A DNA stretch of 64,000 nucleotides from Patescibacteria group bacterium UBA3531 (GCA_002376885.1 DFOW01000001.1:15381-79380), one strand, 5' to 3'. Counted from the first letter of the stretch, positions 15,492-44,571 are shown. Numbers and translations are program-made. The notes: generated from the letters alone by a model not told the origin.

Positions 15492-15649
15492 CCCAATATT
15501 ATGAATATATACCGAACAAAAACACTGTTCATGCGAACCACGCAATTTATGTGTGGGCGTCTTGGCGTAGTCATTTCTACCGTACACCGTTTTTGTGCCA
15601 GGCAATATGTTCTGAGGGCTTAAATTCTCATCTCTAATCTGAGCGTTTG

Positions 15650-15686
15650 AAACATCTTGTCTGGCTGACAAGATGTTTTTGTTCTT
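15650..15686 (+). terminator. intrinsic terminator/attenuator inside the 5' leader of the ABC exporter gene
   Basis: Perfect 11-bp stem AAACATCTTGTC-TGGCTG-ACAAGATGTTT followed by TTGTTCTTTC, ending about 20 nt before the SD GAGAGGG and the ATG at 15707. Confidence 0.6.
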
Positions 15687-15706
15687 TCACAACGAGAGGG
15701 TTAACC

Positions 15707-17548
15707 ATGGAAAAGCGCTTGCGTAAGTACTGCGACGATCTTGCTGAAACGCGGGAAGTGATTCAGTGGATCAAGAGTGAATTTGTCACTCAAGAGGCAT
15801 GGGCATGGGCAAAGAAGATGTTCTTTGTTTTTGCTATCATGATCGGCCTTGACGCACTCCAGCCGTTTGCGGTTCGGTATGTGTTTGATGGGCTCGTTTC
15901 GGGCAACTCTTCATGGGTTATCTTTGGCTTCGTTGGTTTTCTTGTGTGCTTTACGGCACAGAAGGTTACTGACTATCTGAAGAACACCTATCGGGAGTGG
16001 TTCATTGGTCTTAACATTGCAACCATCGATCGTCGTATTACCGAGCTTTTCTTCGAGAAGTCGCTTGGTCAATACGTTACCCATAGTTCTCTTTTGAACG
16101 TGGCGACGATGGACCGCGGGAGGAGCAGTATCAACAACATTCAGGGTACGCTCGTTTTTTACGGGACCTCTTCCTTTTTGTACATGACACTGTCTTGGGT
16201 TGCTGTTGCTCTCTTGAGTCCGCTCTCGGGCGCGCTCTTTTTGCTAGTTGCAACCATCTACCTTCTTTCGGGTTTTTATCTGAACAGTCGTGTAGAAACG
16301 GAGTGTCACGAAATTGAGGAAGATTTTAGGCGTCTTCGTCGTCACCGCTTTGAACGGTGGGAAAAGCTTGAGCGTGTTGCGCTCACTGGAAAGAAGCATC
16401 ACGAGCTTTCCTTCATGACGGAGCGCTTTGACGACATCCTTTCCAAAGACCGAGCATTTTGGTTGGGATTTATTCGTCACTGTGGTTTACGTGAAGGAGT
16501 GAACATTCTGGTGCTTGCGCTCATCTTTGGGATCGGCGCATGGAATGTGTGGACCGGAGTGTGGAGTGTGGGACTTTTGTACCCACTCTACAGTTTGTCG
16601 TCTCGCATCAGTCATAACATGTGGCAGATTGGCGACATTTATCTGGATCTTTCACGTGAGGTTCCTCGTGTTCGCTCAATGATGCGTGCACTCTCGCTCA
16701 CACCAGAAGTGACTGACGCCCCGAACGCGCAAGAGCTTGACCTTACACGTGCTCCGGAAATTCGGTTTGAGGGGGTCTCGCACCGATACCCAGCAGAAGA
16801 CACACGCACTGCAAACGATGGTGTACACACTCTGAAGAATGTCTCGTTTGAGATTGGGCAGGGTGAGAAGCTTGCTGTCATTGGGCCAAGCGGCGCTGGT
16901 AAAACCAGCATTGCAAAACTCCTTTTGCGGTACATGGATCCTGAAGAGGGTGCCATTACTGTAAACGGTATCAGCCTGAAAGACATTGCGCTTTCTTCGT
17001 GGATGCGTCATGTGGGAGTAATTGCCCAAGACCCGCAAGTGTTCGACAACACGTTGCGTTACAACATTACGTATGGTCTTTCCGAAGATCATCGGGAGGA
17101 AATCAAAGACGAAGACGTATGGCATTTGATGAAGCTTCTTCATATCGATTTTGGAAAGCGACTCACTGCAGGACTTGAAACCCGAGTCGGCAGAAGCGGT
17201 ATGAAGCTTTCGGGTGGAGAAGCACAACGCCTTATGATTGGAGCGGCGGCAATCAAGCGCCCCCACTTCATGATCATTGATGAGGCAACCAGCAGTCTCG
17301 ATTCTACAACCGAGAAGGAGGTCCAGAAGGGATTGGCAGATGTGCTTTCGGGTGATGTTGGTGCTCTTGTGATTGCGCATCGGCTTTCAACCGTACGAGA
17401 CCTGTGTGATAAGTTCATGGTACTGAAGCGCAGTACCGACGCGAACACCACTCCGCAGGTTGAAGCAATTGCCGGGAGCTTTGAGGAGCTCTACGAACTC
17501 TCTCCTACGTTCAGGCGTCTATGTGATGACCAAGGGGTCATCATTTAG
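15707..17548 (+). CDS. ABC transporter, fused permease/ATP-binding exporter (type I half-transporter)
   Basis: N-terminal 6-TM domain. Walker A GPSGAGKTS, ABC signature LSGGEAQRL, Walker B MIIDEATSSLD and H-loop. Preferred start MEKRLRKY with SD. The track start at 15647 lies inside the terminator hairpin. Confidence 0.85.
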   Translation: MEKRLRKYCDDLAETREVIQWIKSEFVTQEAWAWAKKMFFVFAIMIGLDALQPFAVRYVFDGLVSGNSSWVIFGFVGFLVCFTAQKVTDYLKNTYREWFIGLNIATIDRRITELFFEKSLGQYVTHSSLLNVATMDRGRSSINNIQGTLVFYGTSSFLYMTLSWVAVALLSPLSGALFLLVATIYLLSGFYLNSRVETECHEIEEDFRRLRRHRFERWEKLERVALTGKKHHELSFMTERFDDILSKDRAFWLGFIRHCGLREGVNILVLALIFGIGAWNVWTGVWSVGLLYPLYSLSSRISHNMWQIGDIYLDLSREVPRVRSMMRALSLTPEVTDAPNAQELDLTRAPEIRFEGVSHRYPAEDTRTANDGVHTLKNVSFEIGQGEKLAVIGPSGAGKTSIAKLLLRYMDPEEGAITVNGISLKDIALSSWMRHVGVIAQDPQVFDNTLRYNITYGLSEDHREEIKDEDVWHLMKLLHIDFGKRLTAGLETRVGRSGMKLSGGEAQRLMIGAAAIKRPHFMIIDEATSSLDSTTEKEVQKGLADVLSGDVGALVIAHRLSTVRDLCDKFMVLKRSTDANTTPQVEAIAGSFEELYELSPTFRRLCDDQGVII

Positions 17549-19662: not shown

Positions 19663-20685
19663 TTAGGTAAAGTAATTAATTTTCATTGCTGCTTTGGCTT
19701 CTTCGAGTGTTTTTTGTGCTACCTTTTGCGCTTCTTCCGTTCCCTTTTCTAAAATCTTCATGACTTCGTCTGGATTTTTTGAAAGGTATTCCCTTTTTTC
19801 TCTAATTGGTTCGATAACATCTTGAAGAACTTTTGTGAGTCTTTTTTTAAGCTCTACATCTCCCAAGCCCCCTTTTTGATATTGCTCTTTTAGTTGTGCA
19901 ACTTGATCTTTATTTGGATCAAAAATATCTAAATAGGTAAACACGACATTGCCCTCTACTTTTCCTGGCTGGTCTACATTAATATGCTCTGGATCGGTGT
20001 ACATTTTCATTACCTTCTCTTCAATTTCTTCGTTTGAGTCTGAAAGTAAAATTGCATTGCCGAGAGACTTACTTGCCTTACCTTTGCCATCAATTCCTGG
20101 GAGGCGTGCACCATGCTCTGGGACCATTGCTTTTACTTTATTAAACACTGGTGGCTCACTAGGATAAAGGCGATTAAACTTTTCTACAATTTCATTGGTT
20201 TGTTCAATCATAGGGAGTTGATCTTCTCCAACCGGCACAAGTGTTGGTTTGAATGCCAAAATATCTGCTGCTTGCGATACCGGATACGCCAAAAATCCTG
20301 CGGGGACATCTTCGTCAAAGCCTTTCTCTTTCATTTCATTCTTTACGGTTGGGTTTCGTTTTAGACGGGCAAGAGTAACTAAGTTCAAAAAATAGGTAAA
20401 GAGTTCTGGGAGCGCGGTAATCTCTGATTGAATAAACAGGGTGGATTTTTGTGGATTGAGCCCTGCGGCCAGGTTGTCTACCGCCACTTCAAATACCGAG
20501 CTACGAACCTTCTCAGGATTGTCGGCATTATCGGTAAGAGCCTGAACATCAGCAATCATAACAAACTGCTTATGGCTGTCTTGGAGTTCTACCCGATTTT
20601 TTAAGGAACCAACAAGGTGGCCCAAATGGAGCTTTCCGGTGGGCCTATCCCCCGTTAAAATTGTCTGAACATTATCTTTGTCCAT
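19663..20685 (-). CDS. trpS: tryptophanyl-tRNA synthetase (AT-rich, native-composition copy)
   Basis: 340 aa. GDRPTGKLHLGHLVG (HIGH region), LFIQSE...LVPVGEDQ, KMSKS-like GKGKASKS. Confidence 0.8.
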   Translation of the reverse strand: MDKDNVQTILTGDRPTGKLHLGHLVGSLKNRVELQDSHKQFVMIADVQALTDNADNPEKVRSSVFEVAVDNLAAGLNPQKSTLFIQSEITALPELFTYFLNLVTLARLKRNPTVKNEMKEKGFDEDVPAGFLAYPVSQAADILAFKPTLVPVGEDQLPMIEQTNEIVEKFNRLYPSEPPVFNKVKAMVPEHGARLPGIDGKGKASKSLGNAILLSDSNEEIEEKVMKMYTDPEHINVDQPGKVEGNVVFTYLDIFDPNKDQVAQLKEQYQKGGLGDVELKKRLTKVLQDVIEPIREKREYLSKNPDEVMKILEKGTEEAQKVAQKTLEEAKAAMKINYFT

Positions 20686-33682: not shown

Positions 33683-34363
33683 TTAGTCTTTGTTATATAA
33701 TTCTTCTGCTCTCCGATGGAGCCACTTGGAAGATTCTATCTCGTTTAAAGGAGTGTGTTCAGAAAAATAGGTGTGTTCTTTGTCCCACCGAATGGTTCTT
33801 TTAGACCATGGTAACCACCATGGGCCTTTAATTTTAATTGTCGTTAACAGTATTGGTGCTTTTGATTTGTAATGTATATGTTGTGGGCCTCGTTTAAATT
33901 CTCCAATTCCATCTTTTTTATGGACTCTCCCTTCGGCAAAAATCATTACTGCCTCACCCTTTTGTAGTCTGTCGACAGTTGATGCCGTTTTGTCTTCAAT
34001 AGTAAGAACCCCGTCTTTATCGCGAGGAGGAAGGATTAATACACCATTTGGCCAATAAATAAATGGATAGGTGATCACCCAATAAATTATTTTTAAAAAC
34101 CAGTGCCGAGGGCTTTGTGTCGCTAAAAAACGAATGGGTAGTATGCTCCAGTAATATTTAAAAGGAAGACTTTGAACAAACAACCAAGGGTCAATAACTG
34201 TCTTATGGTTCCCTACAATCAAAAGGGGTCGTGTTTTAATATCTTCGTATCGGGGCAAAACAACCTTTGTGTACAAAATAGTTTTTAAAACAGGATGAGC
34301 AACGAGCCATTCAAAAACCTGCCAGGAAATGACAATAAAACGTTTAATTTTTGATTCTTTCAT
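33683..34363 (-). CDS. 1-acyl-sn-glycerol-3-phosphate acyltransferase family (PlsC-like), AT-rich copy
   Basis: HX4D motif VGNHKTVIDP and FAEGRV (FPEGTR-like) motif. Confidence 0.7.
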   Translation of the reverse strand: MKESKIKRFIVISWQVFEWLVAHPVLKTILYTKVVLPRYEDIKTRPLLIVGNHKTVIDPWLFVQSLPFKYYWSILPIRFLATQSPRHWFLKIIYWVITYPFIYWPNGVLILPPRDKDGVLTIEDKTASTVDRLQKGEAVMIFAEGRVHKKDGIGEFKRGPQHIHYKSKAPILLTTIKIKGPWWLPWSKRTIRWDKEHTYFSEHTPLNEIESSKWLHRRAEELYNKD

Positions 34364-34431
34364 CTAGGGTAAGTATATAAAAGATGGATAAATGAAACGG
34401 ACGGAGGTTTGTGTAGCTGTGGAAACTACAC

Positions 34432-35091
34432 CTAACTCCGTCCGTGTGCCTCTGCCTCCCGATAGAGCGCAGAGAGCCGCGCATGAATGAACTCGACGCC
34501 CTCTTCTCCCGACATGCCCGAAGGCACGACAAGAGGAGCGATGTCCCAGTTCATCACGACTCGCCACCTGAAGGCGCTCACCTTCTGGCGATAGAGCGCA
34601 ACGAGCCAGATGGACGCACCGCTCTGCCGATGAACCGCCACGATCCCCTTCCGAAGCGGGCCAACCCCAGGACCCTTCCAGATCTTCCCTTCGGGATAGA
34701 TGAGGACGGACGTCTTCTGCTCGACGAGAGCTTCGACCGCGCCAGGGATTGCATGCTGCTTGGGGATGATCATGTTCCTCCGGTAGAACCACCGGTAGAA
34801 CTGACGGAACGGCGGCCACCAGAAGAGCTCCTTCCACGTGAACCTCTCCTTGGCGACGAACCGAATCGGCGCGATGGACTTGAAGCTTGCAAGGACAAGC
34901 GTCAGGACCGCGAAGGGGTGGTCGAGAGTCGACCGGTGGGTGGACCCGATGATCCGAGGCTCGCTCCCAAGAGCCGGGCCCGGATCGTTCAAGACCGTCA
35001 CCTTGTGGAAGGGAGCCAGAAGCCGGGGAAGCCACCAGTGTTCCTTCACCTGGAACCTGGCCGTCTCGCTAAGCTGTGTCTTGATCGACAT
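34432..35091 (-). CDS. PlsC-like acyltransferase, GC-rich paralog
   Basis: HX4D THRSTLDHP, PEG motif IYPEGKIWKG. SD AAGGAGG. Extended -10 (TGGTATAGT) upstream. GC-rich codon usage. Confidence 0.65.
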   Translation of the reverse strand: MSIKTQLSETARFQVKEHWWLPRLLAPFHKVTVLNDPGPALGSEPRIIGSTHRSTLDHPFAVLTLVLASFKSIAPIRFVAKERFTWKELFWWPPFRQFYRWFYRRNMIIPKQHAIPGAVEALVEQKTSVLIYPEGKIWKGPGVGPLRKGIVAVHRQSGASIWLVALYRQKVSAFRWRVVMNWDIAPLVVPSGMSGEEGVEFIHARLSALYREAEAHGRS

Positions 35092-35157
35092 GCCAGATTC
35101 CTCCTTAGGGTTTGGATGAACTTACTGACAAGCACTATACCACATATTTATAAAAAA

Positions 35158-35212
35158 GGAAAGGCCCTGCGGGTAATCACATTGATGTACACCCACAGGG
35201 CCCTTTTTGGCA
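35158..35212. terminator. bidirectional hairpin terminator between MMPL stop and PlsC2 promoter
   Basis: GGCCCTG-26 nt loop-CAGGGCC, flanked by AAAAAAGG and CTTTTTGG. Confidence 0.5.
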
Positions 35213-35228
35213 GTTGCCTGCCCTTCTC

Positions 35229-37559
35229 CTACGCCGCCTCGCCGTAGACCGGCCGGATCCGCGACCGCATCTCCTGGATCCTGCGTTCGAGGTCTCGCCT
35301 GAAGAACGTCTCCGGCGCAACCCGAACGATCGACGGAACGATCACGAGCGTTGCGACGAGACTCGCCACCATCGCGAGCGCGAGGAAGAACCCCAACACC
35401 CGAATGGGAACGAACGCCGAGAGCACGAGCGCGATGAACGCCAGGTTCGAACAGCAATCGAAGACGATCGGCATGCCGACGTCCTTGATGGCCACCCGAA
35501 GCGAGTTGTTCACGTTGCCAAAACTTCTCACCAGAAGACCCGTGCGGGTCACCAGGTGGATGTAGAAGTCGATAGCGGTCGCACCCACGATCAGCGTGAT
35601 AGCGAAGTTCGCAATGTCGATCGTGATGCCGAAGGCACCCATGAGGGCATAGACCAGCCCGTTGGCAAACGTCACGGGGACGAGGGCCAAGAAGGCGAGC
35701 CGCATGCTCCCCAAGAACCACCAGCACACGAGGACGAGAAGGATGGTCAGGAGCCCGTTGCTCCGTGCCCACGACTCGCCCAAGACATCGATCATCGCCG
35801 CCCATTCGAGGAACTCGCCGGTGATCCACAGGGAACCACCAAGGTCGTGTTCCTCCCGATACTCCCGGAGGGAGTCGCGGATGGCGTTGATCCGGTCGCT
35901 CGAGAACGCGTAGATGAACGGGTTCAAGACGAGGTACTCCTCGCCGTCATCCCGAAACTCGGACAGGACGTCCGGGTTGTCGAAGAGCGCGAACTGAGCG
36001 ATCGCATTCTCGTCGTTCGGGATCCGCTCGTCTGCCAGGTCCCCGTCGCGGAGCTCGCGGTTCATGCGAGCCACGCGCTCGTGGAGACCCGTACAGAAGG
36101 TGACGTCGGCGTGAGCCGACGCGTACCCGCAGACCTCGCGTGCCGTCTTGAGACATTCGGGGTCGTTCGTGCTCGTCTCGCACTTCAGCATGACCTGCAC
36201 GAACATCGTACCCCCGAAGTACTTCTCGAGGATGTCGAAGCCGTCGCGAGCCTTCTCCCCCTTCGGGATGAAGTGCGGCGGGTTCGAGCTCACGTTGACC
36301 TCTCTGATGAAGGGGGCCGCAATGATTACGGTCACCGCAACACCAGCGAGGACTCGTCTGCGTGAGTTGCTGAAGAGCGACATCTGGTGCGCCTTCTGCA
36401 AGAACCGCGCAAGCCGACTCCTGACGCGTTTCGACCGAATGGTCTCCGGCGTCGTGATGAGAGACGGAATGAACCAGACCGCTGCGGGAATGACCAGGAG
36501 GCTCGTAGCCGCACCGGTCAGGATCCCCACGATGGCGAACCAGCCGAAGTCGTGATGCGCCTGGACCGGGACACCCACCACCAGGGAAACGAATCCCAAG
36601 GTGCTGGTGAATGCCGCGGCCCGAACGGGACGGCTGACCAGCTCGAACGGGCTCTTGATGGCCTGCTCGAGGCCTTCGTAGTTCCTGTACGACCGCAGCA
36701 TGCACTCGAACACGTGGTACGCGTGCGATGACACGATTGCGAACAGGAGCACCGGAAGGCTTGAAGTCAGCACGTTCTGGAGGACACCGAAGTGCCCCAC
36801 CACACCGAGCGCCCCGACGATCGAGGTCGGGATCACGACGAAGACAGTGAAGACGGCTGCACGCCACCCAAGCACCGTCGACATGGTGATCCACAAGAAC
36901 ACGAGCGCCACTGCACCGAGCATCGCGAACTCTCGATTCGCGAGGATCTCGAACCAGCGGTTCTGGTAGTGGTTGGCGTACGGACCCGCACGGAAGGTGG
37001 CACCCTCCGTAAACGAATCTGCGAGACGCTCGAGTTCGTCGAAGACCTCGTTCTGCCCCTTCTTTCCGTCGAGACGGAAGACCATGAGGCTTGCGTAGCT
37101 GTCGGTCGAGACGATGCGCCCGTAGAGGAGCGGATCGCTTTCGATCTTTGCCCGAAGCGCACGCTCCTCTTCGCGCGTGGCGGGGACCTCTCGAATGAGA
37201 TCACCCACGCGCACCTCGCCCTCGCCCACGTTCTCGATGTAGTCGTAGCCCGTAAGCGAATGGACCACGGCTCCCGGCGCCAGGATCGAGGAGGTCTCGA
37301 CCTCGGCGTGGAGTGCCATGATCTTCTGGATGCAGCTGGCCGAGTAGGAACCCATGGGGCCCTTGCACTCGAGTCCGATGACCGCGTAGTCGTAGTCGAC
37401 GAAGACGCGATCGAACGCTGCGTTCTCGATGGCCTGGGGATGATCCGACTCGAGGTGACCCTCGAGAACCGGCGTCATCTCCGGACTGATCCCCAGAAGG
37501 GATACGGCCCAAAAGACCACGAGAGCGGTCAGAATGAAACCTGCCGTCTTTTTGCTCAC
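35229..37559 (-). CDS. RND-superfamily MMPL-type exporter (two 6-TM bundles)
   Basis: 776 aa. Duplicated 6-TM MMPL/SSD-like modules with large periplasmic loops. GTG start with SD AAAGGAG. GC-rich. Confidence 0.7.
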   Translation of the reverse strand: MSKKTAGFILTALVVFWAVSLLGISPEMTPVLEGHLESDHPQAIENAAFDRVFVDYDYAVIGLECKGPMGSYSASCIQKIMALHAEVETSSILAPGAVVHSLTGYDYIENVGEGEVRVGDLIREVPATREEERALRAKIESDPLLYGRIVSTDSYASLMVFRLDGKKGQNEVFDELERLADSFTEGATFRAGPYANHYQNRWFEILANREFAMLGAVALVFLWITMSTVLGWRAAVFTVFVVIPTSIVGALGVVGHFGVLQNVLTSSLPVLLFAIVSSHAYHVFECMLRSYRNYEGLEQAIKSPFELVSRPVRAAAFTSTLGFVSLVVGVPVQAHHDFGWFAIVGILTGAATSLLVIPAAVWFIPSLITTPETIRSKRVRSRLARFLQKAHQMSLFSNSRRRVLAGVAVTVIIAAPFIREVNVSSNPPHFIPKGEKARDGFDILEKYFGGTMFVQVMLKCETSTNDPECLKTAREVCGYASAHADVTFCTGLHERVARMNRELRDGDLADERIPNDENAIAQFALFDNPDVLSEFRDDGEEYLVLNPFIYAFSSDRINAIRDSLREYREEHDLGGSLWITGEFLEWAAMIDVLGESWARSNGLLTILLVLVCWWFLGSMRLAFLALVPVTFANGLVYALMGAFGITIDIANFAITLIVGATAIDFYIHLVTRTGLLVRSFGNVNNSLRVAIKDVGMPIVFDCCSNLAFIALVLSAFVPIRVLGFFLALAMVASLVATLVIVPSIVRVAPETFFRRDLERRIQEMRSRIRPVYGEAA

Positions 37560-37675
37560 CGTTTGCTCCTTTGGCGGACTTTCAAAGAACGCCTAAAAAG
37601 GTATGAATCTAGGTTAAAAGTGCCATAAATATATAAAAAAGTCAATAGTTATCGTGCCCCTGTGGATAGAGAAAG

Positions 37676-37712
37676 AGAAAAGGCGGCACGCGCGCGTGCC
37701 GCCTTCCTTGTC
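37676..37712 (-). terminator. rho-independent terminator after the LolA-like gene
   Basis: Minus sense: GGCGGCACGCG-CG-CGTGCCGCC followed by UUUUCUCUUUCUC. Confidence 0.6.
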
Positions 37713-37715
37713 CCC

Positions 37716-38540
37716 CTACTTCTTCGGGGGCTTCCTTCCCTGCTGGAGTGCTTGTTGGGTGCAGACAGGCACCCTGATCGTGGGGTCAATGACCCGCTCC
37801 TTCCACGTCACCTCGGTGGTACGCTCGGGAGTCTTTGGATCCCAGGCCACAAGCTTTGTGGGGAGTGCTCGCCCACCCACAGCCATGATGTTCTTGCGCC
37901 CAATGTCGATCATTCGCACCGGCACAAGCTCCGTGCCTTGCATCTTCTCTTGCGTGACACGAAGAAGAGCGCCGTCGCTCTTCGCAATCATCATCGTGGT
38001 CTGGTCGTACCCGCTCGCAAACCGCGGGCGGAGCACAAAGACGTACACGGGTTCATCGTCGAGCATGCTCTCCTCCATCCGAAGGACAGAGAAGTGCTCA
38101 CCTCGCCTGAACTCCATGTCGCCCTGCGAGAGCTCCGTTCCGAAGAACGCGTCACCCCGACTTGCGCCGCTGATGCGTCTCCGGTTCCGAATGGACGGGA
38201 GATACATCCAGTAGTCGTTCGATCCTTCGTCGATCGCGCGCTCCATTACGAGCATGGTGGTGTTGCGTACCGTTGTCGGGGCAAAGAACTGCCCAAACAA
38301 GCAGTACTCGTTGTCACGCTCTACCGTCCACACACCAAGCTCGCCCTTGAGTCGCCGCTTACCTCGCTTGGTATCGACGTTCTCGAGCGTTACTCGAGCG
38401 TAGTTGGGAGCGAAGTTCTGACGAAGAGCACGTTCCAGGATCTGTTCCGGGTTCACCGGAATGGCGTCTTCGATCGCTCGGGCGGTGCTCTCGCCACCAA
38501 GGAGAGAGCCTACCAGAAACAAAATGATAGCAAGCCGCAT
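37716..38540 (-). CDS. LolA-like periplasmic lipoprotein-sorting fold protein (partner of MMPL exporter)
   Basis: Signal peptide MRLAIILFLVGSLLGGESTA. 274 aa. The LolA/DUF1329-like assignment rests on size, the signal peptide and recurrent genomic pairing with MMPL exporters. Low sequence certainty. Confidence 0.4.
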   Translation of the reverse strand: MRLAIILFLVGSLLGGESTARAIEDAIPVNPEQILERALRQNFAPNYARVTLENVDTKRGKRRLKGELGVWTVERDNEYCLFGQFFAPTTVRNTTMLVMERAIDEGSNDYWMYLPSIRNRRRISGASRGDAFFGTELSQGDMEFRRGEHFSVLRMEESMLDDEPVYVFVLRPRFASGYDQTTMMIAKSDGALLRVTQEKMQGTELVPVRMIDIGRKNIMAVGGRALPTKLVAWDPKTPERTTEVTWKERVIDPTIRVPVCTQQALQQGRKPPKK

Positions 38541-38659
38541 GGCTCACCTCCTTGGAGTTTCGAAGATCCATGCGCGAAATGCGCATATCCAGTATTAAAA
38601 TAACACGTAAATTTTATTTGTCAATTAAACTGCCCTCCTTTAGGCCTTTTAAAGAATGC

Positions 38660-39454
38660 TTAAAGTTTTATATTCTTTTTATCTGTGACAAGAGAGAAGG
38701 TCTCATCATATCTACCTGCTGAAACAAAAAGTGGGTAGAAACTTATACTTGAAAAAATAACTGATTTTCCATTTTTACCGAGCGGTGTGTTTTTTTTAAT
38801 TTTTTGAAACTCTTTAAATTTATACTGATGAAATGGTTTGGGTGTTTTTAAGACGTCTTTTACTATATAAAGCTCTTTGTTGCGATGTCGTTTTCTCTGA
38901 TTTTTTAACATTTCTAGATTGCCAAGGATTTCCTCTATATCTCTTGCTACTATTTTATATCTCCTAGTTGATTTATCTGGTCCATATTCTAGAGAAACAC
39001 CGCATTTTGATGCACCTATTAAAGACCCCTTACCAAATTTATTTTTTCTAATTAGGGCTACTTTTGATATTGCAGAACAAGAAAGAAGTCTTTTTTTATT
39101 TTTATTAAAATCTGTAGTTATAAGAAGTCTATCTAGTTTTGAACTTGTACCATGAATATCTAAAACATAATCACATTTAGATATAATTTTTCGGATATGA
39201 TATGCGAGTTGTTGTTCCTGATTCCCACTTTTTTTACCAGGAAAACTTCTATTGAGATCTTGATGGATGTGTCGTGTCTTTGACTTCACTCCTTCTGGGT
39301 GAGCAATTATAAAAGTTATTGAGCCCTTTTTAAGGTCAATATTTTTTCTTAAGTATTTTATAGCCTCAATACCAATTGGTTCATCACCGTGGACGGCACC
39401 GACAATGGCAATTGATGGCCCTTTGATTTTACTTGTAGTTTTATACAGTTTCAT
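38660..39454 (-). CDS. succinylglutamate desuccinylase/aspartoacylase (AstE/AspA) family zinc deacylase
   Basis: SIAIVGAVHGDEPIG (the GxHGNE zinc motif of the AstE_AspA family). 264 aa. AT-rich, unlike the GC-rich neighbours. Confidence 0.65.
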   Translation of the reverse strand: MKLYKTTSKIKGPSIAIVGAVHGDEPIGIEAIKYLRKNIDLKKGSITFIIAHPEGVKSKTRHIHQDLNRSFPGKKSGNQEQQLAYHIRKIISKCDYVLDIHGTSSKLDRLLITTDFNKNKKRLLSCSAISKVALIRKNKFGKGSLIGASKCGVSLEYGPDKSTRRYKIVARDIEEILGNLEMLKNQRKRHRNKELYIVKDVLKTPKPFHQYKFKEFQKIKKNTPLGKNGKSVIFSSISFYPLFVSAGRYDETFSLVTDKKNIKL

Positions 39455-39518
39455 TATCTAAAAAAAATTTGGGGAGGGGCGGTGGTGTCATCATACGACG
39501 ACACCACCGCACATGCCC

Positions 39519-40277
39519 CTAGAGGTACTTCGCACACAGATCTTTGCATGTGAAGGCCCACGTAGCCACTTCGGCGGGACACCCGCTTGCACCGAAGACT
39601 CGAAACTCGATGGTCCCGTGCCCAGTGATTCGGATGTAGTGCCAGCAGCTTCGCAGATCTTCCGACCATCCGTCGGCGCGTGCCTTCTCGTGAACTTCTT
39701 CCCATCCCTTGAACTTGGGAGGTCGGAAGTTAGGGGCGACAACCTGGTAGAGCCTGTGACGCTCTCCGTTCGAGTGGTCCCCGACATTTCGAAGCTCGTC
39801 GACATGATCCACTACCCCATTGTAGACACGCAGAGCAGATTCATGATCGGGCATACCCACATGGATGTGGGTTCCCGTTACACGACATGCCGCATCGAGA
39901 ACTTCTCTGGGCATGTCTTTGGTGATCTCCGCGTACCTGCCAGTCGGGTCGGGGTACACCGAGAGACACATACCAGGAGGGGCTACCTCCAAGAATTGCA
40001 CCGAGAGCCCTAGGAACGAACATGCTCGGTTGAGCGCACGATCATTCCTCATGAGAGTACCGAGCACGTCTTTGGGAAGAACAGGCCCGATACGATCTTC
40101 AATCTGACATGCCGACAGCTCGAAACCGAATTCCTCACACTCTCCAAGAGAGGCAAGAACTTCGTGAGCTCTCGGAACGATCTCTCCCTTGTCATCGGTA
40201 ACGAAACGTTCCCGTTCGATACCGAGAAACAAGGACCTCTCTCTGTCGAAAGAGAAGCGATCCAAGAATTCTTTCAC
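39519..40277 (-). CDS. GCS2/YbdK-like carboxylate-amine ligase, C-terminally short (252 aa)
   Basis: LFLGIERERF (the GCS2 FTLGIELE metal-binding motif) and HIHVGM (the HVHVG motif) at YbdK-like spacing. GTG start 8 nt after GAAGGAGG. Preceded by a T-box leader. Confidence 0.45.
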   Translation of the reverse strand: MKEFLDRFSFDRERSLFLGIERERFVTDDKGEIVPRAHEVLASLGECEEFGFELSACQIEDRIGPVLPKDVLGTLMRNDRALNRACSFLGLSVQFLEVAPPGMCLSVYPDPTGRYAEITKDMPREVLDAACRVTGTHIHVGMPDHESALRVYNGVVDHVDELRNVGDHSNGERHRLYQVVAPNFRPPKFKGWEEVHEKARADGWSEDLRSCWHYIRITGHGTIEFRVFGASGCPAEVATWAFTCKDLCAKYL

Positions 40278-40299
40278 GAGAGTATCCTCCTTCTAAAGA

Positions 40300-40575
40300 A
40301 CTATTCGGGAACAAAAAATCCCGTCCTCACGACACAACCATCTGTATTGTGTCAAAAGGACGAGAGTTTTCCCGCGGTACCACCTTTTTTATCCCATTAA
40401 TGAAATGGGATCACTTAACTGACTCATAAAGATATCAGTTTTCCTATGATTACGGAGGAAGCCGAGCTACCACTATCGCAGTAGCCATCCTGCCTACGGA
40501 GGCGATACAAGCCCAACCCCGAATCCTTGTTCGGGACCTGCATCAAGGATTTTATTTCTTAAATATACTTCTATT
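40300..40575 (-). promoter_or_regulatory. T-box riboswitch leader (tRNA-sensing transcription attenuator)
   Basis: Minus-strand RNA carries the T-box sequence AAAAAAGGUGGUACCGCGG (consensus AGGGUGGNACCGCG, N=U). Antiterminator: AAGG/CCUU helix with a UGGUACC bulge and a CGGGA-AAAC-UCUCG helix. A competing 17-bp terminator hairpin CUCGUCCUUUUGACACA...UGUGUCGUGAGGACGGG plus AUUUUUUGUU follows. There is a Stem-III-like hairpin GAUCCCAUU-UCAUU-AAUGGGAU and a distal Stem-I hairpin GGCUACUGCGAUAGUGGUAGCUC. Confidence 0.75.
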
Positions 40576-40579
40576 GAAA

Positions 40580-40609
40580 GTATAAACACCAACAGTTTAA
40601 CTGTCAATA
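40580..40609 (-). promoter_or_regulatory. sigma-70-like promoter TTGACA-N18-TATACT driving the T-box leader, overlapped by the 13-bp palindrome ACAGTTTAACTGT
   Basis: Minus sense: CTGTATTGACAGTTAAACTGTTGGTGTTTATACTTTC. The palindrome spans the -35 and spacer region. Confidence 0.5.
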
Positions 40610-40620
40610 CAGAAAAGCAG

Positions 40621-40652
40621 GGGGCGCAGACCTTGACGCCTGCGCCCCCACT
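40621..40652 (-). terminator. rho-independent terminator of the trpS2/CM-MTase operon
   Basis: Minus sense: GGGGGCGCAG-GCGUCAAGGU-CUGCGCCCCC followed by UGCUUUUCUGU. Confidence 0.65.
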
Positions 40653-40654
40653 TT

Positions 40655-41776
40655 CTAGACACGAGTCGCTACCACGATCGTGTATGCACCATGCTCATTA
40701 CCTTCGTTGGAAAGACCTCGGTCAATCTTCTCGATCTCTTCACCGAGAAGCCCCTCCACCAGAAGGTTGCCTGGAAGCACGGACGACACTGTCGGATAGG
40801 TGTACATTTCGTCGATGACGAAATGTTGGTCGCTCACCATACTCTCGACGTCCGCAAAGGTGTACGGCCGTGCGAACACGGAGAACACCTCAGGTCCCGT
40901 CTCGGTATCCAGGTGGACATCGAGGCATTCCTCGTCGAGGTTGATCTGGGCTGCGAGACCCAGGGGCCACGGAAGGAATTGCTTGTAGACGAGAGCATCC
41001 AGGTTATAGAACGAGGCGAACAGCTTTCCACCCGGGGAGAGGACGTCGTGAAGGTTCGCAAGAAGCTTGCGGATCTCCCTGATGTCACTCCCTGTGCCCA
41101 TGGAAAGCGCTGCAAACGAGACAGAAGTCTGCGGGAACGAAAGGTTTCCTTCGTCCAGGTCATGGACGAAGAACTCGGCATTTCCGATGGACTTCTTCTT
41201 GGCCTCTCTGATCATGTGAGGACTGATGTCATAGCCCACCACACGATCGAACCTTGCCGCAAGGCGAGCGGCCTGAATCCCTGTAGCACAGCCAAGATCA
41301 AGGGCGCGCTCACGCTCGTCCTTGCTCATGTTCTCGACGATTCGATCGAGTACCTCTCTTTCGAACCTGAGATACGAGTCCGTGCTGAAGGTACCCCCCA
41401 GGAACTTCTCCTCGTACCATGGGGCGACACGCTCGGTTAGGTCGAGAAGCGCTTGCTTACGATCCCTCGGAGTCTTCTCCAGGGAATGGTCTCCCTGGAG
41501 AAGTCGAAGCTGTTCGTGACACGACTGAAGGATGGAGAAGTACATCAGCGCCCCAGCAAAATGGGAACGTACTCCGTACTTCTTTGCCCACTCCTGGGCT
41601 GCCTTCATCACACGAGCATCCTCGATTTCCTCTCGGATGATCGGCTGACCCTGGGAACGCTTGTAACGTTCCACCTGTGCCGCAAGCTCCATCCGACGAG
41701 CAAAGATCGCAAGGATCGTCTCGTCGACTGCCCCAAGCCTCTTTGCGAGGATCTCGAGGTTGGGTAGTTCTGTCAT
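40655..41776 (-). CDS. chorismate mutase (AroQ/CM_2) domain fused to class I SAM-dependent methyltransferase
   Basis: The N-terminal 90 aa, LEILAKRLGAVDETILAIFARRMELAAQVERYKRSQGQPIIREEIEDARVM, align to AroQ catalytic positions (Arg11, Arg28, Lys39, Glu52, Gln88 equivalents). Central MTase motif I LDLGCATGIQAARLAARFDRVVGYDIS and motif II/III GGKLFASF. Start is 13 nt after the trpS2 stop. Confidence 0.6.
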   Translation of the reverse strand: MTELPNLEILAKRLGAVDETILAIFARRMELAAQVERYKRSQGQPIIREEIEDARVMKAAQEWAKKYGVRSHFAGALMYFSILQSCHEQLRLLQGDHSLEKTPRDRKQALLDLTERVAPWYEEKFLGGTFSTDSYLRFEREVLDRIVENMSKDERERALDLGCATGIQAARLAARFDRVVGYDISPHMIREAKKKSIGNAEFFVHDLDEGNLSFPQTSVSFAALSMGTGSDIREIRKLLANLHDVLSPGGKLFASFYNLDALVYKQFLPWPLGLAAQINLDEECLDVHLDTETGPEVFSVFARPYTFADVESMVSDQHFVIDEMYTYPTVSSVLPGNLLVEGLLGEEIEKIDRGLSNEGNEHGAYTIVVATRV

Positions 41777-41789
41777 CTCTTGGATCCTT

Positions 41790-42788
41790 CTAGTACTGCC
41801 TGATTCCCATCAGGTCGCGTACTTGTTCGGTCGTTTCCTTGATCATGGCTCGGGCGGTCTTTCCACCTTCTACCAGAACTTCTTCGACGTAATCTCGCTT
41901 CTTGGCGAGTTCACGTCGTCTCTCCTGGAACGGCTCGATGACCGACGCAAGGCTTTCGATGAGGAGAGTCTTGCATTCACCGCAACCGATCGAGGCAGAT
42001 TGACACGCATGTGCAATCTCTCGGTTGCCTTTTTCGCCAGGAGTGATGAGCTCGTGAACCGGATACACGGACTTGCATCCGTGATACGGGTCACCGGGAT
42101 CGGTTCGTGTCCTTCGTGCAGGGTCCGTGACTCCGCGCTTCTTGTACAAGTTACCGATTTCGGCGATAGGAAGATTGATGTCGACAGCGTTACTGGCGTC
42201 TGACTTTCCCATCTTCCCACCGTCGAGACCAGGCACCTTCACCATTTCGGAGAGCATTCGCGGTTCTGCGAAAACATCTCCGAAGCGGCTGTTGAAACGA
42301 CGAGCAATGGAGCGCGCCATCTCAACGTTCGGGACCTGGTCCTCGCCACACGGCACAAGGGTCGCCTGCGGACCAAGAATGTCCGCAGCCATCAGCACGG
42401 GGTAGGAAACCAAACCGAGACTCACACGGTCCGGATTCCTCTTCACCAGATCCTTGAAGGTCGGAACCCTCTGCAGATCTCCAAGCGGTTGAAACATGGA
42501 GAGATACAGGAAGAGTTCCACCGTCTCGGGAACGCTCGACTGAGCGTAGATGACGGACTGCTCCGGGTCGAGACCCGCAGCGAGGTAGTCCGTAACGATC
42601 TCGAGGAGGTTCTTTCGAAGCTCTTCGGGGTCGTCGAGCGTCGTCAAGGTGTGCAGATCTGCAACGAAGTAGAGGCAGCGATTTCCTTCCGCCTGATGCT
42701 CCACAAAGTTCCTCACTGCACCCAGGAAGTTTCCGAAATGGAGTCTTCCTGTAGCCCTGATTCCAGAAAGCACGGTCTCTTTATTCAC
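41790..42788 (-). CDS. trpS: tryptophanyl-tRNA synthetase, GC-rich second copy (possible Fe-S type)
   Basis: LSGIRATGRLHFGNFLGAV (HIGH region), SYPVLMAADIL, KMGKS. C-terminal Cys cluster HGC...HAC...CGEC. GTG start after GGAGGAG. Confidence 0.8.
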   Translation of the reverse strand: MNKETVLSGIRATGRLHFGNFLGAVRNFVEHQAEGNRCLYFVADLHTLTTLDDPEELRKNLLEIVTDYLAAGLDPEQSVIYAQSSVPETVELFLYLSMFQPLGDLQRVPTFKDLVKRNPDRVSLGLVSYPVLMAADILGPQATLVPCGEDQVPNVEMARSIARRFNSRFGDVFAEPRMLSEMVKVPGLDGGKMGKSDASNAVDINLPIAEIGNLYKKRGVTDPARRTRTDPGDPYHGCKSVYPVHELITPGEKGNREIAHACQSASIGCGECKTLLIESLASVIEPFQERRRELAKKRDYVEEVLVEGGKTARAMIKETTEQVRDLMGIRQY

Positions 42789-42895
42789 GTCTACTCCTCC
42801 GAAGGTTTCTAACTCTAGGTGACAAGCACGATGCTTGGCAAAGACCTTGTTCTGATCAGAAGTCTAACAATTAAAACTTTGTTGTCAATGTTTAA

Positions 42896-43969
42896 CTACA
42901 CCCCCTCTTCCTTTAACTCTTCAATGAGTTTTTTTGCTTTTTTAGAAAGCTTGCCTGGAGTTTTTACAATGAGTTTTATAAGTAGGTCTCCTCGTTTATT
43001 GTCACTTACCGGTACTCCTTTGCCACGCAAACGAAGCACCTCGCCACTTGAAGCACCTGCAGGGATCGTTACTTTTAGGTTTCCTTCAAGTGTCTCTACG
43101 CTGTAGTCTGCACCAAGCACGGCATCGGTAAGTTTTACATTTAAATCCATAAGAAGATCTGATGCTTGCCGTTTAAAGGCTTCGTGTGCTTCTACATGCA
43201 CTCGCAAATACAGATCTCCTGTTACCCCATGTGGCACAGCCTCTCCTTTCCCGGAAAGCCTAATCATTTCGCCATGTTGGATACCTGCTGGGATAGTGAT
43301 ATTAATTTCTTCATCACTTTTTACTACGCCAGAGCCGTTACAGTCTTTACACTTTTCTTTAGGAATTGAACCCTTTCCAAAACAATCAGAACACTCTTTA
43401 ACTTGTGTAAAGGTCCCTAACAGAGATTTTCTTGTTTCGTGGAGTTTACCCTTACCGTTACAGGTATTGCAGGTGATTGTCTCCTTTTCATTCTTTGCCC
43501 CCGTACCATTGCAGGTTTTACACTGAGAGTTTTTAGTGAGTTTTATGATGCGAGTCGTTCCAAAAATGCTTTCCTTAAAAGGCAGTTGAATATCTACTTG
43601 GATGTCGCTCCCTCGGCGGACATTTGCACCACGGCCACCAAACGGACCACCCCCGGTAAAGATGTTTTCAAAAATATCACCCAAGTCGACATTAAACCCA
43701 TCTGCTCCTTGGAAACCAGAGAAATCAAAACCACCAAAACCTTGTCCACCGCCACCAGAAAATGCCTGGCCGTAGGTATCGTATTCGGCTCGTTTTTTAT
43801 CGTTTGAAAGGACTGTGTAGGCCTCGTTTACTTCTTTGAATTTTGCTTCGTCTCCCCCTTTGTCGGGATGGTATTTATGCGCAAGACGTCTAAAGGCTTT
43901 TTTGATTTCGTCTTTAGAAGCCTTTTTATCTACCCCCAATACTTGATAGTAGTCTTTATTGGCTGACAT
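42896..43969 (-). CDS. dnaJ: chaperone DnaJ
   Basis: J-domain with HPD (YYQVLGV...KYHPDK). G/F-rich linker. Four CxxCxGxG zinc-finger repeats. Confidence 0.9.
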
Positions 43970-44571
43970 TATTTTTGGATATTTAATTTAGTTTTAGGAA
44001 AAAGTTTTTTTATTATACTCTCATACCCATCTCTCTCAACAATTTCCCAGGCCTCCTTATATGCTGGGAACATTTGGGATTTTTCTATATCACGCTCTAA
44101 TCGACTCGGTTCATTTAATACATCTTTGTAGAGAGCTTTTAAAACAGCATGCACCGCAACATGGATAATTACCAGATTCTCTTTATTTGGATACATTTCT
44201 TTAAGAATTTGAAAAAAACTGTATTCTTCTTTGTCTCTACTAAACAATCGATGTATCAACTCATGAGAAAGAATATCAATATAGCGGTCAGGCTCCAGGT
44301 AGGAACCAGTAACAAGGGGTGTGCTAAAACCACCCTTATAAGCAGGTAGTAAATACACATTAATCGTATCTTCTTTGTATGTCAGACCACATATGTCTTG
44401 TAGTCCGAGTAGTATTTTCTCTTCTACCTGCGACCACCTCTTTTTATATTCTTCAGCTCGTTCCTGTAATTTTTCTAAAGAAAGGGGTTCCCACTTTTTT
44501 TCTTGGGCATATAATGCAGCCATCTGGTGAAGTTTATGCTGCGTTATAAACTCTACCTTAGGAATATTCAT
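43969..44571 (-). CDS. hypothetical protein with HExxH motif inside the grpE-dnaK-dnaJ operon (putative small metallopeptidase)
   Basis: 200 aa. [12 protein letters not shown] contains HELIH. Start and stop overlap the dnaK and dnaJ boundaries. Confidence 0.35.

Follow-up and report, generated by a model that had tools for sequence, protein, structure and literature searches.

What could a chorismate mutase (CM)-like domain that is fused to an S-adenosylmethionine (SAM)-dependent methyltransferase (MTase) be doing behind a second tryptophanyl-tRNA synthetase (TrpRS) gene in a patescibacterial genome? The question is raised by a two-gene operon in a stretch of 64,000 nucleotides (nt) from Patescibacteria group bacterium UBA3531 (GCA_002376885.1 DFOW01000001.1:15381-79380), which is called the window here and whose positions are counted from its first letter. 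The operon encodes a synthetase, TrpRS2, and, 13 nt downstream (spacing 41777-41789), the fusion protein. The coordinates, sizes and spacing of the two open reading frames (ORFs) given in a first-pass annotation were reproduced, and so was its description of a two-gene operon with a second, compositionally foreign TrpRS that adjoins a T-box. It had also described a 10-bp GC-clamp terminator after the fusion; a strong GC-rich hairpin does begin directly past the fusion stop codon, but its stem is 12 bp long, with 10 G-C pairs. The features of the operon, with lengths in amino acids (aa), are as follows.

42861..42888, minus strand: sigma-70-like promoter of trpS2 and the fusion gene, TTGACA-16-TAGACT with TG, in the 107-nt gap between dnaJ and trpS2
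41790..42788, minus strand: TrpRS2 ORF, 332 aa, GTG start, GGAGGA before the start, 55.6% GC
40655..41776, minus strand: CM-like::SAM-methyltransferase fusion ORF, 373 aa, a single ORF with Pfam and NCBIfam matches
41495..41758, minus strand: AroQ (CM_2, PF01817)-like three-helix domain of the fusion, aa 7-94, from Pfam, the AlphaFold2 (AF2) model and profile alignment
40658..41470, minus strand: class I SAM-dependent MTase of the fusion, aa 103-373, including a pair of cap helices at its N-terminus and, at its C-terminus, a lid that is specific to the family
40620..40649, minus strand: intrinsic terminator closing the operon, with a T-run

The answer that we favour, with a probability of roughly 0.4, is that the fusion methylates a small molecule related to tryptophan (Trp) or other aromatic compounds, and that this methylation is coupled to a chorismate-type ligand. 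We infer this from the conserved ligand core of the CM-like domain, the acidity of the protein, the small-molecule MTases among its structural neighbours (TM1389, ToxA and DhpI) and the adjacency of a 3-deoxy-D-arabino-heptulosonate 7-phosphate (DAHP) synthase gene in two alphaproteobacterial genomes.

It is well supported that the 373-aa ORF is real and encodes one of a small group of conserved enzymes with two domains. The identical protein was found on 8 contigs, including independent ENA, JGI and NCBI assemblies (GCA_002708165.1, PAMJ01000009.1), and 63 clusters match the fusion at 30-44% identity, nearly all with both CM_2 and MTase matches in Pfam. The fusion was also found as a single ORF in 58 GTDB species loci, so the database search for the same architecture that the first-pass annotation had proposed showed that it recurs widely. 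A profile search against 1.84 billion representatives returned 233 proteins at E<=1e-30 that share the fusion or its MTase with the lid, most of them 365-420 aa long and aligned end to end, and the single-ORF architecture is kept in more than 100 divergent representatives. The AF2 model, built on a 49-sequence alignment, is one compact protein (pLDDT 93.3, pTM 0.89) whose three AroQ helices lead into a pair of cap helices, then a Rossmann core and finally a lid rich in beta strands, and the linker helices are conserved across the family. The family is acidic, with a median pI of 5.5 for the whole protein and 5.2 for the MTase part. Databases name the fusion 'methyltransferase domain-containing protein'. 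Literature searches on the fusion and its linkage to TrpRS, and on TrpRS with CM and MTase, found no relevant paper; since they covered the literature incompletely, this outcome is no more than absence of evidence. Each of the two domains has a known fold, and no characterised member of their fusion was found.

The N-terminal domain was matched by CM_2 above its curated threshold, at aa 12-80 with 42.4 bits (cutoff 27), and AF2 predicts the three-helix AroQ fold for it (helices 7-42, 49-67 and 71-94, pLDDT about 90). The family profile matches 1ECM at E=4e-13 and aligns without gaps to residues 2-99 of E. coli CM (EcCM) with 52 bits; it aligns to PchB, an isochorismate-pyruvate lyase, too. R28, K39, E52, S84 (S85 here) and Q88 (Q89 here) are in register with EcCM, and of these R28, K39 and E52 are at least 90% invariant in the family, and the equivalents of S84 and Q88 are the majority residue. 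In the EcCM-inhibitor complex, the ring carboxylate is bound by R28, the ether oxygen by K39 together with Q88, and the 4-hydroxyl by E52, and the enolpyruvyl carboxylate is held by R51, through a water, and by R11', an arginine donated by the partner subunit. The fusion lacks the full catalytic set of R11', R28, K39, D48, R51, E52, S84 and Q88 (EcCM numbering): compared with the AroQ enzymes, PchB included, five of these are kept, but R11' is replaced by Gly or Ala, R51 by a hydrophobic residue and D48 by Arg (Arg48 here), and R13, R48 and R55 are conserved arginines that are new in this family. The claim that five catalytic residues were in register stood for four of them; the fifth, the R of the motif AKRL, is R13, which aligns to EcCM K13 and sits two residues out of register with the catalytic R11'. 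Judged from the alignments, the part of the pocket that receives the ring seems preserved, and the part for the side chain altered. Since R11' and R51 are missing, ordinary CM or isochorismate-pyruvate lyase chemistry cannot be assumed, and because the side-chain end of the pocket is changed, we do not file the domain as a proven chorismate mutase. Like the E. coli P-protein (CM-prephenate dehydratase) and T-protein (CM-prephenate dehydrogenase), the fusion carries its AroQ domain at the N-terminus of a bifunctional protein, but its partner is a SAM-dependent MTase, an architecture without a characterised member among those found, and its gene context is TrpRS and tRNA-Trp, not Phe/Tyr biosynthesis. 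As the first-pass annotation had said, it is not a standard shikimate enzyme.

A complete class I SAM-dependent MTase follows the CM-like domain, as had been read earlier from its motifs. DLGCATG (159-166), D183 and D206 are present, five Pfam models (Methyltransf_25/23/11/12/31) match aa 135-273, all over cutoff, and more than 1000 MTase chains in the PDB match in Foldseek at E<=1e-3. The signatures of the family are motif I DLGCATG, GT(A/G)SD, SFYNxDALxY, PW, ARPY, TYPT and GAY. Apart from CmoM, the sequence and fold matches are all to generic small-molecule MTases, among them TM1389 (PDB 2AVN), ToxA, DhpI, YcgJ and PH0226.

To place the fusion in its gene context, the 58 GTDB species loci were scanned with the proteins of the window; 44 of them are non-alphaproteobacterial, namely Patescibacteria and one Poribacteria chromosome, and 14 are alphaproteobacterial. 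TrpRS and fusion genes are no more than 300 nt apart in 28 of the 44 non-alphaproteobacterial loci and in 25 of the 31 that have flanks of at least 1.5 kb. The linked TrpRS gene is mostly the one that immediately precedes the fusion gene on the same strand, 0-30 nt away, or else it is divergent, and it is almost always of the 4-Cys type, C-x22/23-C-x6-C-x2-C. The same arrangement of TrpRS and CM-MTase was observed in the 7-Mb Poribacteria chromosome (L009). In 9 loci a tRNA-Trp(CCA) gene is found at most 300 nt from the fusion gene, and other loci have one further off. Over more than 40 Patescibacteria species, the conserved unit consists only of TrpRS and CM-MTase, and it adjoins Trp-supply genes controlled by a Trp T-box, often with a tRNA-Trp gene. 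Two Patescibacteria loci have no adjacent TrpRS; the fusion gene stands there beside BtpA-like and TrpD-like genes or AstE genes, which places it still within the island.

Among metagenomic loci with relatives of TrpRS2 at 55-79% identity, about 8 have the fusion gene nearby and about 7, adequately flanked, are without it; the T-box adjoins TrpRS instead in most of the latter. An obligate TrpRS2/CM-MTase pair, which we had considered, is weakened by this split. The alphaproteobacterial contexts are mostly uninformative. In Beijerinckiaceae, the fusion gene is solitary and close to the cox operon, with genes for an EamA transporter and SMC on its two sides. In two syntenic alphaproteobacterial metagenome-assembled genomes (MAGs; L054 8194-9801, and L063), a class II DAHP synthase gene lies directly upstream on the same strand, which is a weak pointer to real shikimate-pathway chemistry. 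A partnership of DAHP synthase with AroQ is known from mycobacteria.

TrpRS2 matches tRNA-synt_1b with 181 bits and TIGR00233 with 255.6 bits (cutoff 176.75), and the HIGH-like motif HFGN, the KMSKS-like motif KMGKS and the Trp-pocket motif YPVLMAADIL can be read from its sequence. It is truly a second synthetase, as had been claimed, because the window holds a paralogue, TrpRS1, that is 33% identical to it in tblastn and passes TIGR00233 with 261.8 bits:

19663..20685, minus strand: TrpRS1, host-like (41% GC), without the Cys motif, beside aspS, from tblastn and TIGR00233

TrpRS1 has a divergent pocket motif, YPVSQAADIL, and KASKS. TrpRS2 carries C-x23-C-x6-C-x2-C, and the same type of motif was found in about 30 neighbouring TrpRS genes. 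In the TrpRS of T. maritima (TmTrpRS), C-x22-C-x6-C-x2-C is a [4Fe-4S] motif in the anticodon-binding domain, and the authors of the structure suggested that the cluster serves to recognise a tRNA with a specific modification (PMC2954223). By this motif TrpRS2 belongs to the 4-Cys ([4Fe-4S]-type) class and would be expected to bind a cluster. The likeness to TmTrpRS extends to nearly all TrpRS beside CM-MTase, whereas no partner methyltransferase has been reported for TmTrpRS itself. Many sister genomes also pair a 4-Cys TrpRS gene with a TrpRS gene that lacks the motif, a few kb away at most (L004 15358-16311; L012 12122-13093; L028 477-1448; L060 13929-14798; L065 3206-4183; L079; L081), so that a dual TrpRS seems to be a trait of the lineage and not a peculiarity of this MAG.

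Directly downstream of the operon lies a second transcription unit on the same strand, headed by a T-box leader.

40579..40607, minus strand: sigma-70-like promoter of the T-box operon, TTGACA-17-TATACT, 11 of 12 matches
40306..40555, minus strand: Trp-specific T-box leader with compact Stem I, T-box sequence AAGGUGGUACCGCG and terminator/antiterminator
39519..40277, minus strand: T-box-controlled amidoligase, 252 aa, with weak GCS2/Amidoligase_2 similarity
38660..39454, minus strand: AstE/AspA-family zinc deacylase, second gene of the T-box operon, 31% GC

An Rfam scan of the window at gathering thresholds returned nothing, and the T-box surfaces only in E-value mode, where RF00230 matches 40353..40555 on the minus strand with 58.1 bits (E=4.7e-11; gathering score 93 not reached). 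The leader nevertheless has the structure of a T-box, with AAGGUGGUACCGCG followed by a terminator, UGG plus a purine in the Stem I loop, and a 3'-side bulge G-UUGGG that gives the specifier UGG. We found 28 sequences that match the T-box core motif, and 25 of them have the same compact Stem I, which consists of a proximal helix and a distal hairpin, with a bulge of one nucleotide on the 5' side and, invariantly, R-UUGGG on the 3' side. In a simple covariation test, 19 of the 25 leaders have at least 5 of 6 pairs in each helix, with many compensatory changes, and these covarying helices on either side of R-UUGGG assign the specifier position to UGG with a following purine. As for the T-box bulge, its sequence is UGGC or UGGU, and position 73 of the linked tRNA-Trp genes is G, except in L033, where A73 goes with a UGGU bulge. 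The class was observed in L002, L004, L014, L017-L021, L025, L028-L034, L037, L040, L041, L043, L046, L051, L053, L055, L059-L061 and L065.

The genes under control of these leaders are varied. The commonest set, as in the window, is an amidoligase of about 253 aa with an AstE/AspA deacylase; the position of the amidoligase downstream of the T-box is conserved, and its family comprises at least 403 clusters, of which all the named ones are from Patescibacteria. The L033 leader controls indole-3-glycerol-phosphate synthase, TrpB and TrpA (trpC-trpB-trpA). Other leaders control TrpD-like (Glycos_transf_3) and BtpA-like genes, GNAT and AstE genes, or a PPDK-like enzyme with a His-phosphatase, a 118-aa protein and AstE, and one controls an aminotransferase, GCS2, an enolase-superfamily enzyme and AstE. 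As in the Trp T-boxes of Firmicutes (upstream of trpS and trp genes; RF00230), there are a T-box sequence, a terminator/antiterminator and a UGG-plus-purine specifier, and Trp-supply genes are under control; but Stem I is compact, with 52 nt against 87 in the model, and the score is below the gathering threshold, the targets are mostly uncharacterised (amidoligase, AstE/AspA deacylase, GNAT, TrpD-like and BtpA-like), and trpS is not under T-box control. A literature search on T-boxes in the candidate phyla radiation or Patescibacteria found nothing relevant, which with its incomplete coverage is absence of evidence only. Kept across Patescibacteria with very different gene sets, the compact-Stem-I class looks like an undescribed Trp acquisition regulon. 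On the Patescibacteria contig of L002, the region 15630-16688 lines up three features: a gene for tRNA-Met, an ORF of the LAGLIDADG type and a match to a group I intron that, with 45.7 bits, narrowly misses the gathering score.

Both transcription units belong to one island:

34364..42790, no strand assigned: compositionally mosaic island, GC 55-62% against about 40% in the host, with one gene of 31%

The island contains an acyltransferase, an RND/MMPL transporter, a LolA-like protein and the Trp module. The trpS2, fusion and amidoligase genes have a GC content of 55-56%, the LolA-like and RND genes 59-62% (72-83% at third codon positions, GC3), and the AstE gene 31% (GC3 20%) although it is flanked by genes of 55-62% GC in the same apparent operon; the island is therefore a mosaic of at least three compositional classes. 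The flanking dnaK/dnaJ/grpE, trpS1 and aspS genes have 35-43%, and the island junctions are identical in independent assemblies. The island is mosaic and foreign, and was acquired by horizontal transfer into a genome that already held TrpRS1. Because the T-box is Trp-specific and the regulated genes fit Trp roles, we read the locus as a tryptophan island with trpS2 and the fusion gene as its constitutive unit and the T-box operon as its starvation-induced unit.

Some neighbouring genes were observed in addition. At the edge of the island, two PlsC-type acyltransferase genes stand in tandem on the minus strand (33683-34363 and 34364-35035; 38% against 60% GC), and this pair of a host-like and a GC-rich gene may be a recombination joint of the island. 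The RND/MMPL (HAE3-like) transporter and LolA-like protein genes (35229-38540, minus strand) lie downstream of the T-box operon on the same strand and are not conserved in sister loci. On the other side, a 200-aa ORF between dnaK and dnaJ (43969-44571, minus strand) has no Pfam or NCBIfam match; its start shares a base with the dnaK stop and its stop shares a base with the dnaJ start.

The MTase with its lid also occurs in a sister architecture. In a Nitrospirota MAG (L062 2262-4940, plus strand), an 892-aa ORF joins a caspase-like domain, the MTase with lid and a C-terminal YbaK/tRNA_edit domain, and its MTase part aligns to positions 118-374 of the family profile with 200 bits and all signature motifs. 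At least 20 clusters (458-632 aa; P0064-P0085) combine the MTase and lid with tRNA_edit and have no CM domain; the N-terminus of this sister family is an undescribed domain of about 150 aa, or the caspase-like domain in L062. The three members that could be placed (L067-L069) lie in defence-like neighbourhoods, with type III CRISPR including a Card1-like nuclease, PycTM and toxin-antitoxin genes. PADLOC gave no specific defence model, only a generic match of the MTase region to mad2 with 57-69 bits, and assignment to a known anti-phage defence system was dropped on that basis. The YbaK-fused proteins may be effectors of conflict systems that are aimed at aminoacyl-tRNA.

How these parts might work together can be proposed as follows. 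The AroQ domain, presumably dimeric like all AroQ enzymes, would bind a cyclohexadienyl carboxylate of the chorismate/prephenate type, with the ring held through R28, K39, E52, S84 and Q88 and the enolpyruvyl-carboxylate end handled in a different way, without R11' and R51. The acidic MTase, whose acceptor site contains an invariant Ser-Asp and whose lid is aromatic, would take a small, probably cationic and aromatic, amino-acid-like acceptor. The methylation step would serve TrpRS in tryptophan or aromatic homeostasis, being neither an antibiotic pathway nor a standard shikimate step. The setting of this step is well supported: expressed from their own promoter, the fusion and the [4Fe-4S]-type TrpRS form the constitutive part of an island that Patescibacteria carry and exchange, in which the UGG-specifier T-box switches on the Trp-supply enzymes when tRNA-Trp is uncharged. 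Of the readings offered in the first-pass annotation, the comparative data agree better with its fallback, in which the locus serves the salvage or regulation of aromatic amino acids, than with the natural-product reading.

Several observations weigh against small-molecule methylation coupled to a chorismate-type ligand. The position of R11' is Ala11 in this protein and Gly in the family, and that of R51 is Ile51 and hydrophobic in the family. To our knowledge, Patescibacteria generally have no shikimate pathway, so chorismate or prephenate may be unavailable to the CM-like domain. The similarity of the MTase is generic only and gives no substrate. Linkage to TrpRS was observed in 0 of the 14 alphaproteobacterial loci, and the fusion counts as an accessory component of the island, since only about half of the loci with close relatives of TrpRS2 have it. 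Finally, the YbaK fusions are a second, independent link of the MTase module to aminoacyl-tRNA biology, and since that sister clade has no CM domain, the methyl acceptor need not be a CM product.

The last of these points leads to the alternative that the enzyme is directed at tRNA, which we consider doubtful but not negligible. The MTase would act on tRNA-Trp or on the aminoacyl end of Trp-tRNA-Trp, and the [4Fe-4S] TrpRS and CM-MTase would be a functional pair, for example if the synthetase recognised an anticodon that carries a modification; the role of the CM-like domain would be to provide or hold a prephenate-type cofactor, or only to dimerise the protein. Co-transcription with, or divergence from, TrpRS in the 25 of 31 well-flanked loci, the adjoining tRNA-Trp genes, the YbaK/tRNA_edit fusions of the same MTase and lid, and the recognition of modified tRNA proposed for the TmTrpRS cluster (PMC2954223) all speak for it. 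So does CmoM, the tRNA cmo5U34 carboxyl methyltransferase (PDB 8JOZ/4HTF), which is the second-best PDB sequence match, in an alignment that spans SFYN of the family and MFYN of CmoM; its nearest structure is TM1389 (PMC10516636), which is the closest structure to the AF2 model too. CmoM and TM1389 are, however, only about 18-20% identical to the fusion, and membership in CmoM, judged by score and by the substrate residues R26, W124 and Y247, was rejected on both: the CmoM equivalog NF008264 gives 30 bits against a cutoff of 366, and W124 aligns to the family-invariant Asp (Asp231) of GT(A/G)SD. The acidity of the family is unusual for tRNA-binding enzymes as well. The absence of CM-MTase near about half of the TrpRS2 relatives shows that the synthetase does not depend on it, the alphaproteobacterial orthologues have no linkage to a synthetase or tRNA, and the tRNA-Trp adjacency would follow as well from a general clustering of Trp functions in the island. 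The fusion and the [4Fe-4S] TrpRS could also be complementary parts of a system for tryptophan translation that has not been described before, one that would modify tRNA-Trp, Trp-tRNA-Trp or a Trp look-alike through a chorismate-derived ligand or reaction; to this idea, too, we give a low chance. If true, it would explain the fusion of the MTase and lid to YbaK and would give the iron-sulfur cluster of TrpRS a function.

An unlikely alternative takes the AroQ-like domain as non-catalytic, a dimerisation module or one that binds a ligand (chorismate, prephenate or arogenate) and regulates the MTase. This would account for the loss of R11' and R51 from a pocket that is otherwise kept and has gained the invariant arginines R13, R48 and R55, and for an N-terminal domain that is interchangeable in the sister family (about 150 aa, or caspase-like); the pTM of the model suggests a fixed arrangement between the domains. 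But the exact retention of K39, Q88 and E52, the transition-state contacts, exceeds what simple binding seems to need, and AroQ domains fused to other enzymes, as in the P- and T-proteins, are catalytic.

We regard as distinctly improbable a resistance or natural-product cassette, in which TrpRS2 would be insensitive to an inhibitor and CM-MTase would make a chorismate- or Trp-derived compound or detoxify a TrpRS-directed toxin. Self-resistance by aminoacyl-tRNA synthetases is known from antibiotic clusters, indolmycin-resistant TrpRS being an example, and the window resembles such cases in having a second, horizontally acquired TrpRS, next to a host-like TrpRS1, beside tailoring-type enzymes; two TrpRS genes share the locus in several sister genomes, and the YbaK-fused relatives have defence-like neighbourhoods. 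It differs in its housekeeping-style operon, found in many species, and in its partners, which are supply genes induced by Trp starvation; moreover, the 4-Cys TrpRS is common in these lineages and is not a rare resistance allele, and PADLOC offers the generic mad2 match alone. No nonribosomal peptide synthetase, polyketide synthase, cyclodipeptide synthase or other core biosynthetic gene was found in the window or in about 60 related loci. We therefore rejected an antibiotic gene cluster with synthetase self-resistance, and the natural-product reading of the first-pass annotation is not supported, the conserved unit being only TrpRS and CM-MTase beside Trp-supply genes.

Chemically attractive and yet very unlikely is an analogue of carboxy-SAM (Cx-SAM) synthase, with the CM domain making prephenate and the MTase fold using prephenate and SAM to form Cx-SAM for carboxymethyl transfer. 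Its precedent is CmoA, which has a class I MTase fold and is alone among known enzymes in using SAM together with prephenate (PMC12783734), so that it likewise joins SAM with a chorismate mutase product; a CM fusion would channel the co-substrate. No specific sequence or fold similarity to CmoA was detected, and the candidate was not retained: CmoA was not among the best 25 NCBIfam, 34 phmmer PDB, best 60 profile or best 50 Foldseek matches, the sister clade has the same lid without a CM domain, and the gene tables of the surveyed loci list no CmoB/CmoX-like transferase, for which no dedicated search was run. Lastly, an annotation artefact, in which a sequencing frameshift or the loss of a stop codon would have merged two genes, found no support and is refuted by the identical ORF in independent assemblies, the recurrence of the single ORF in more than 100 divergent representatives, the conserved linker helices and the confident whole-chain model.

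Small-molecule methylation coupled to a chorismate-type ligand remains the favoured answer. Knowing the reaction of the fusion would assign a role to an AroQ domain without two canonical arginines, which may mean a new class of substrate, and would show whether small-molecule or tRNA methylation is coupled to an aminoacyl-tRNA synthetase. The defence-like islands of the YbaK-fused sisters suggest that the MTase module has been reused in conflict systems. If the fusion and TrpRS2 are parts of a tryptophan-translation system, the island around them would encode an unrecognised, T-box-controlled route of Trp acquisition (amidoligase with AstE/AspA deacylase, TrpD-like with BtpA-like). Patescibacteria are thought to be amino-acid auxotrophs with minimal metabolism, and many of them nonetheless keep and pass on this compact tryptophan module; the reaction of the fusion would help to explain how such ultra-small symbionts secure the rarest amino acid.

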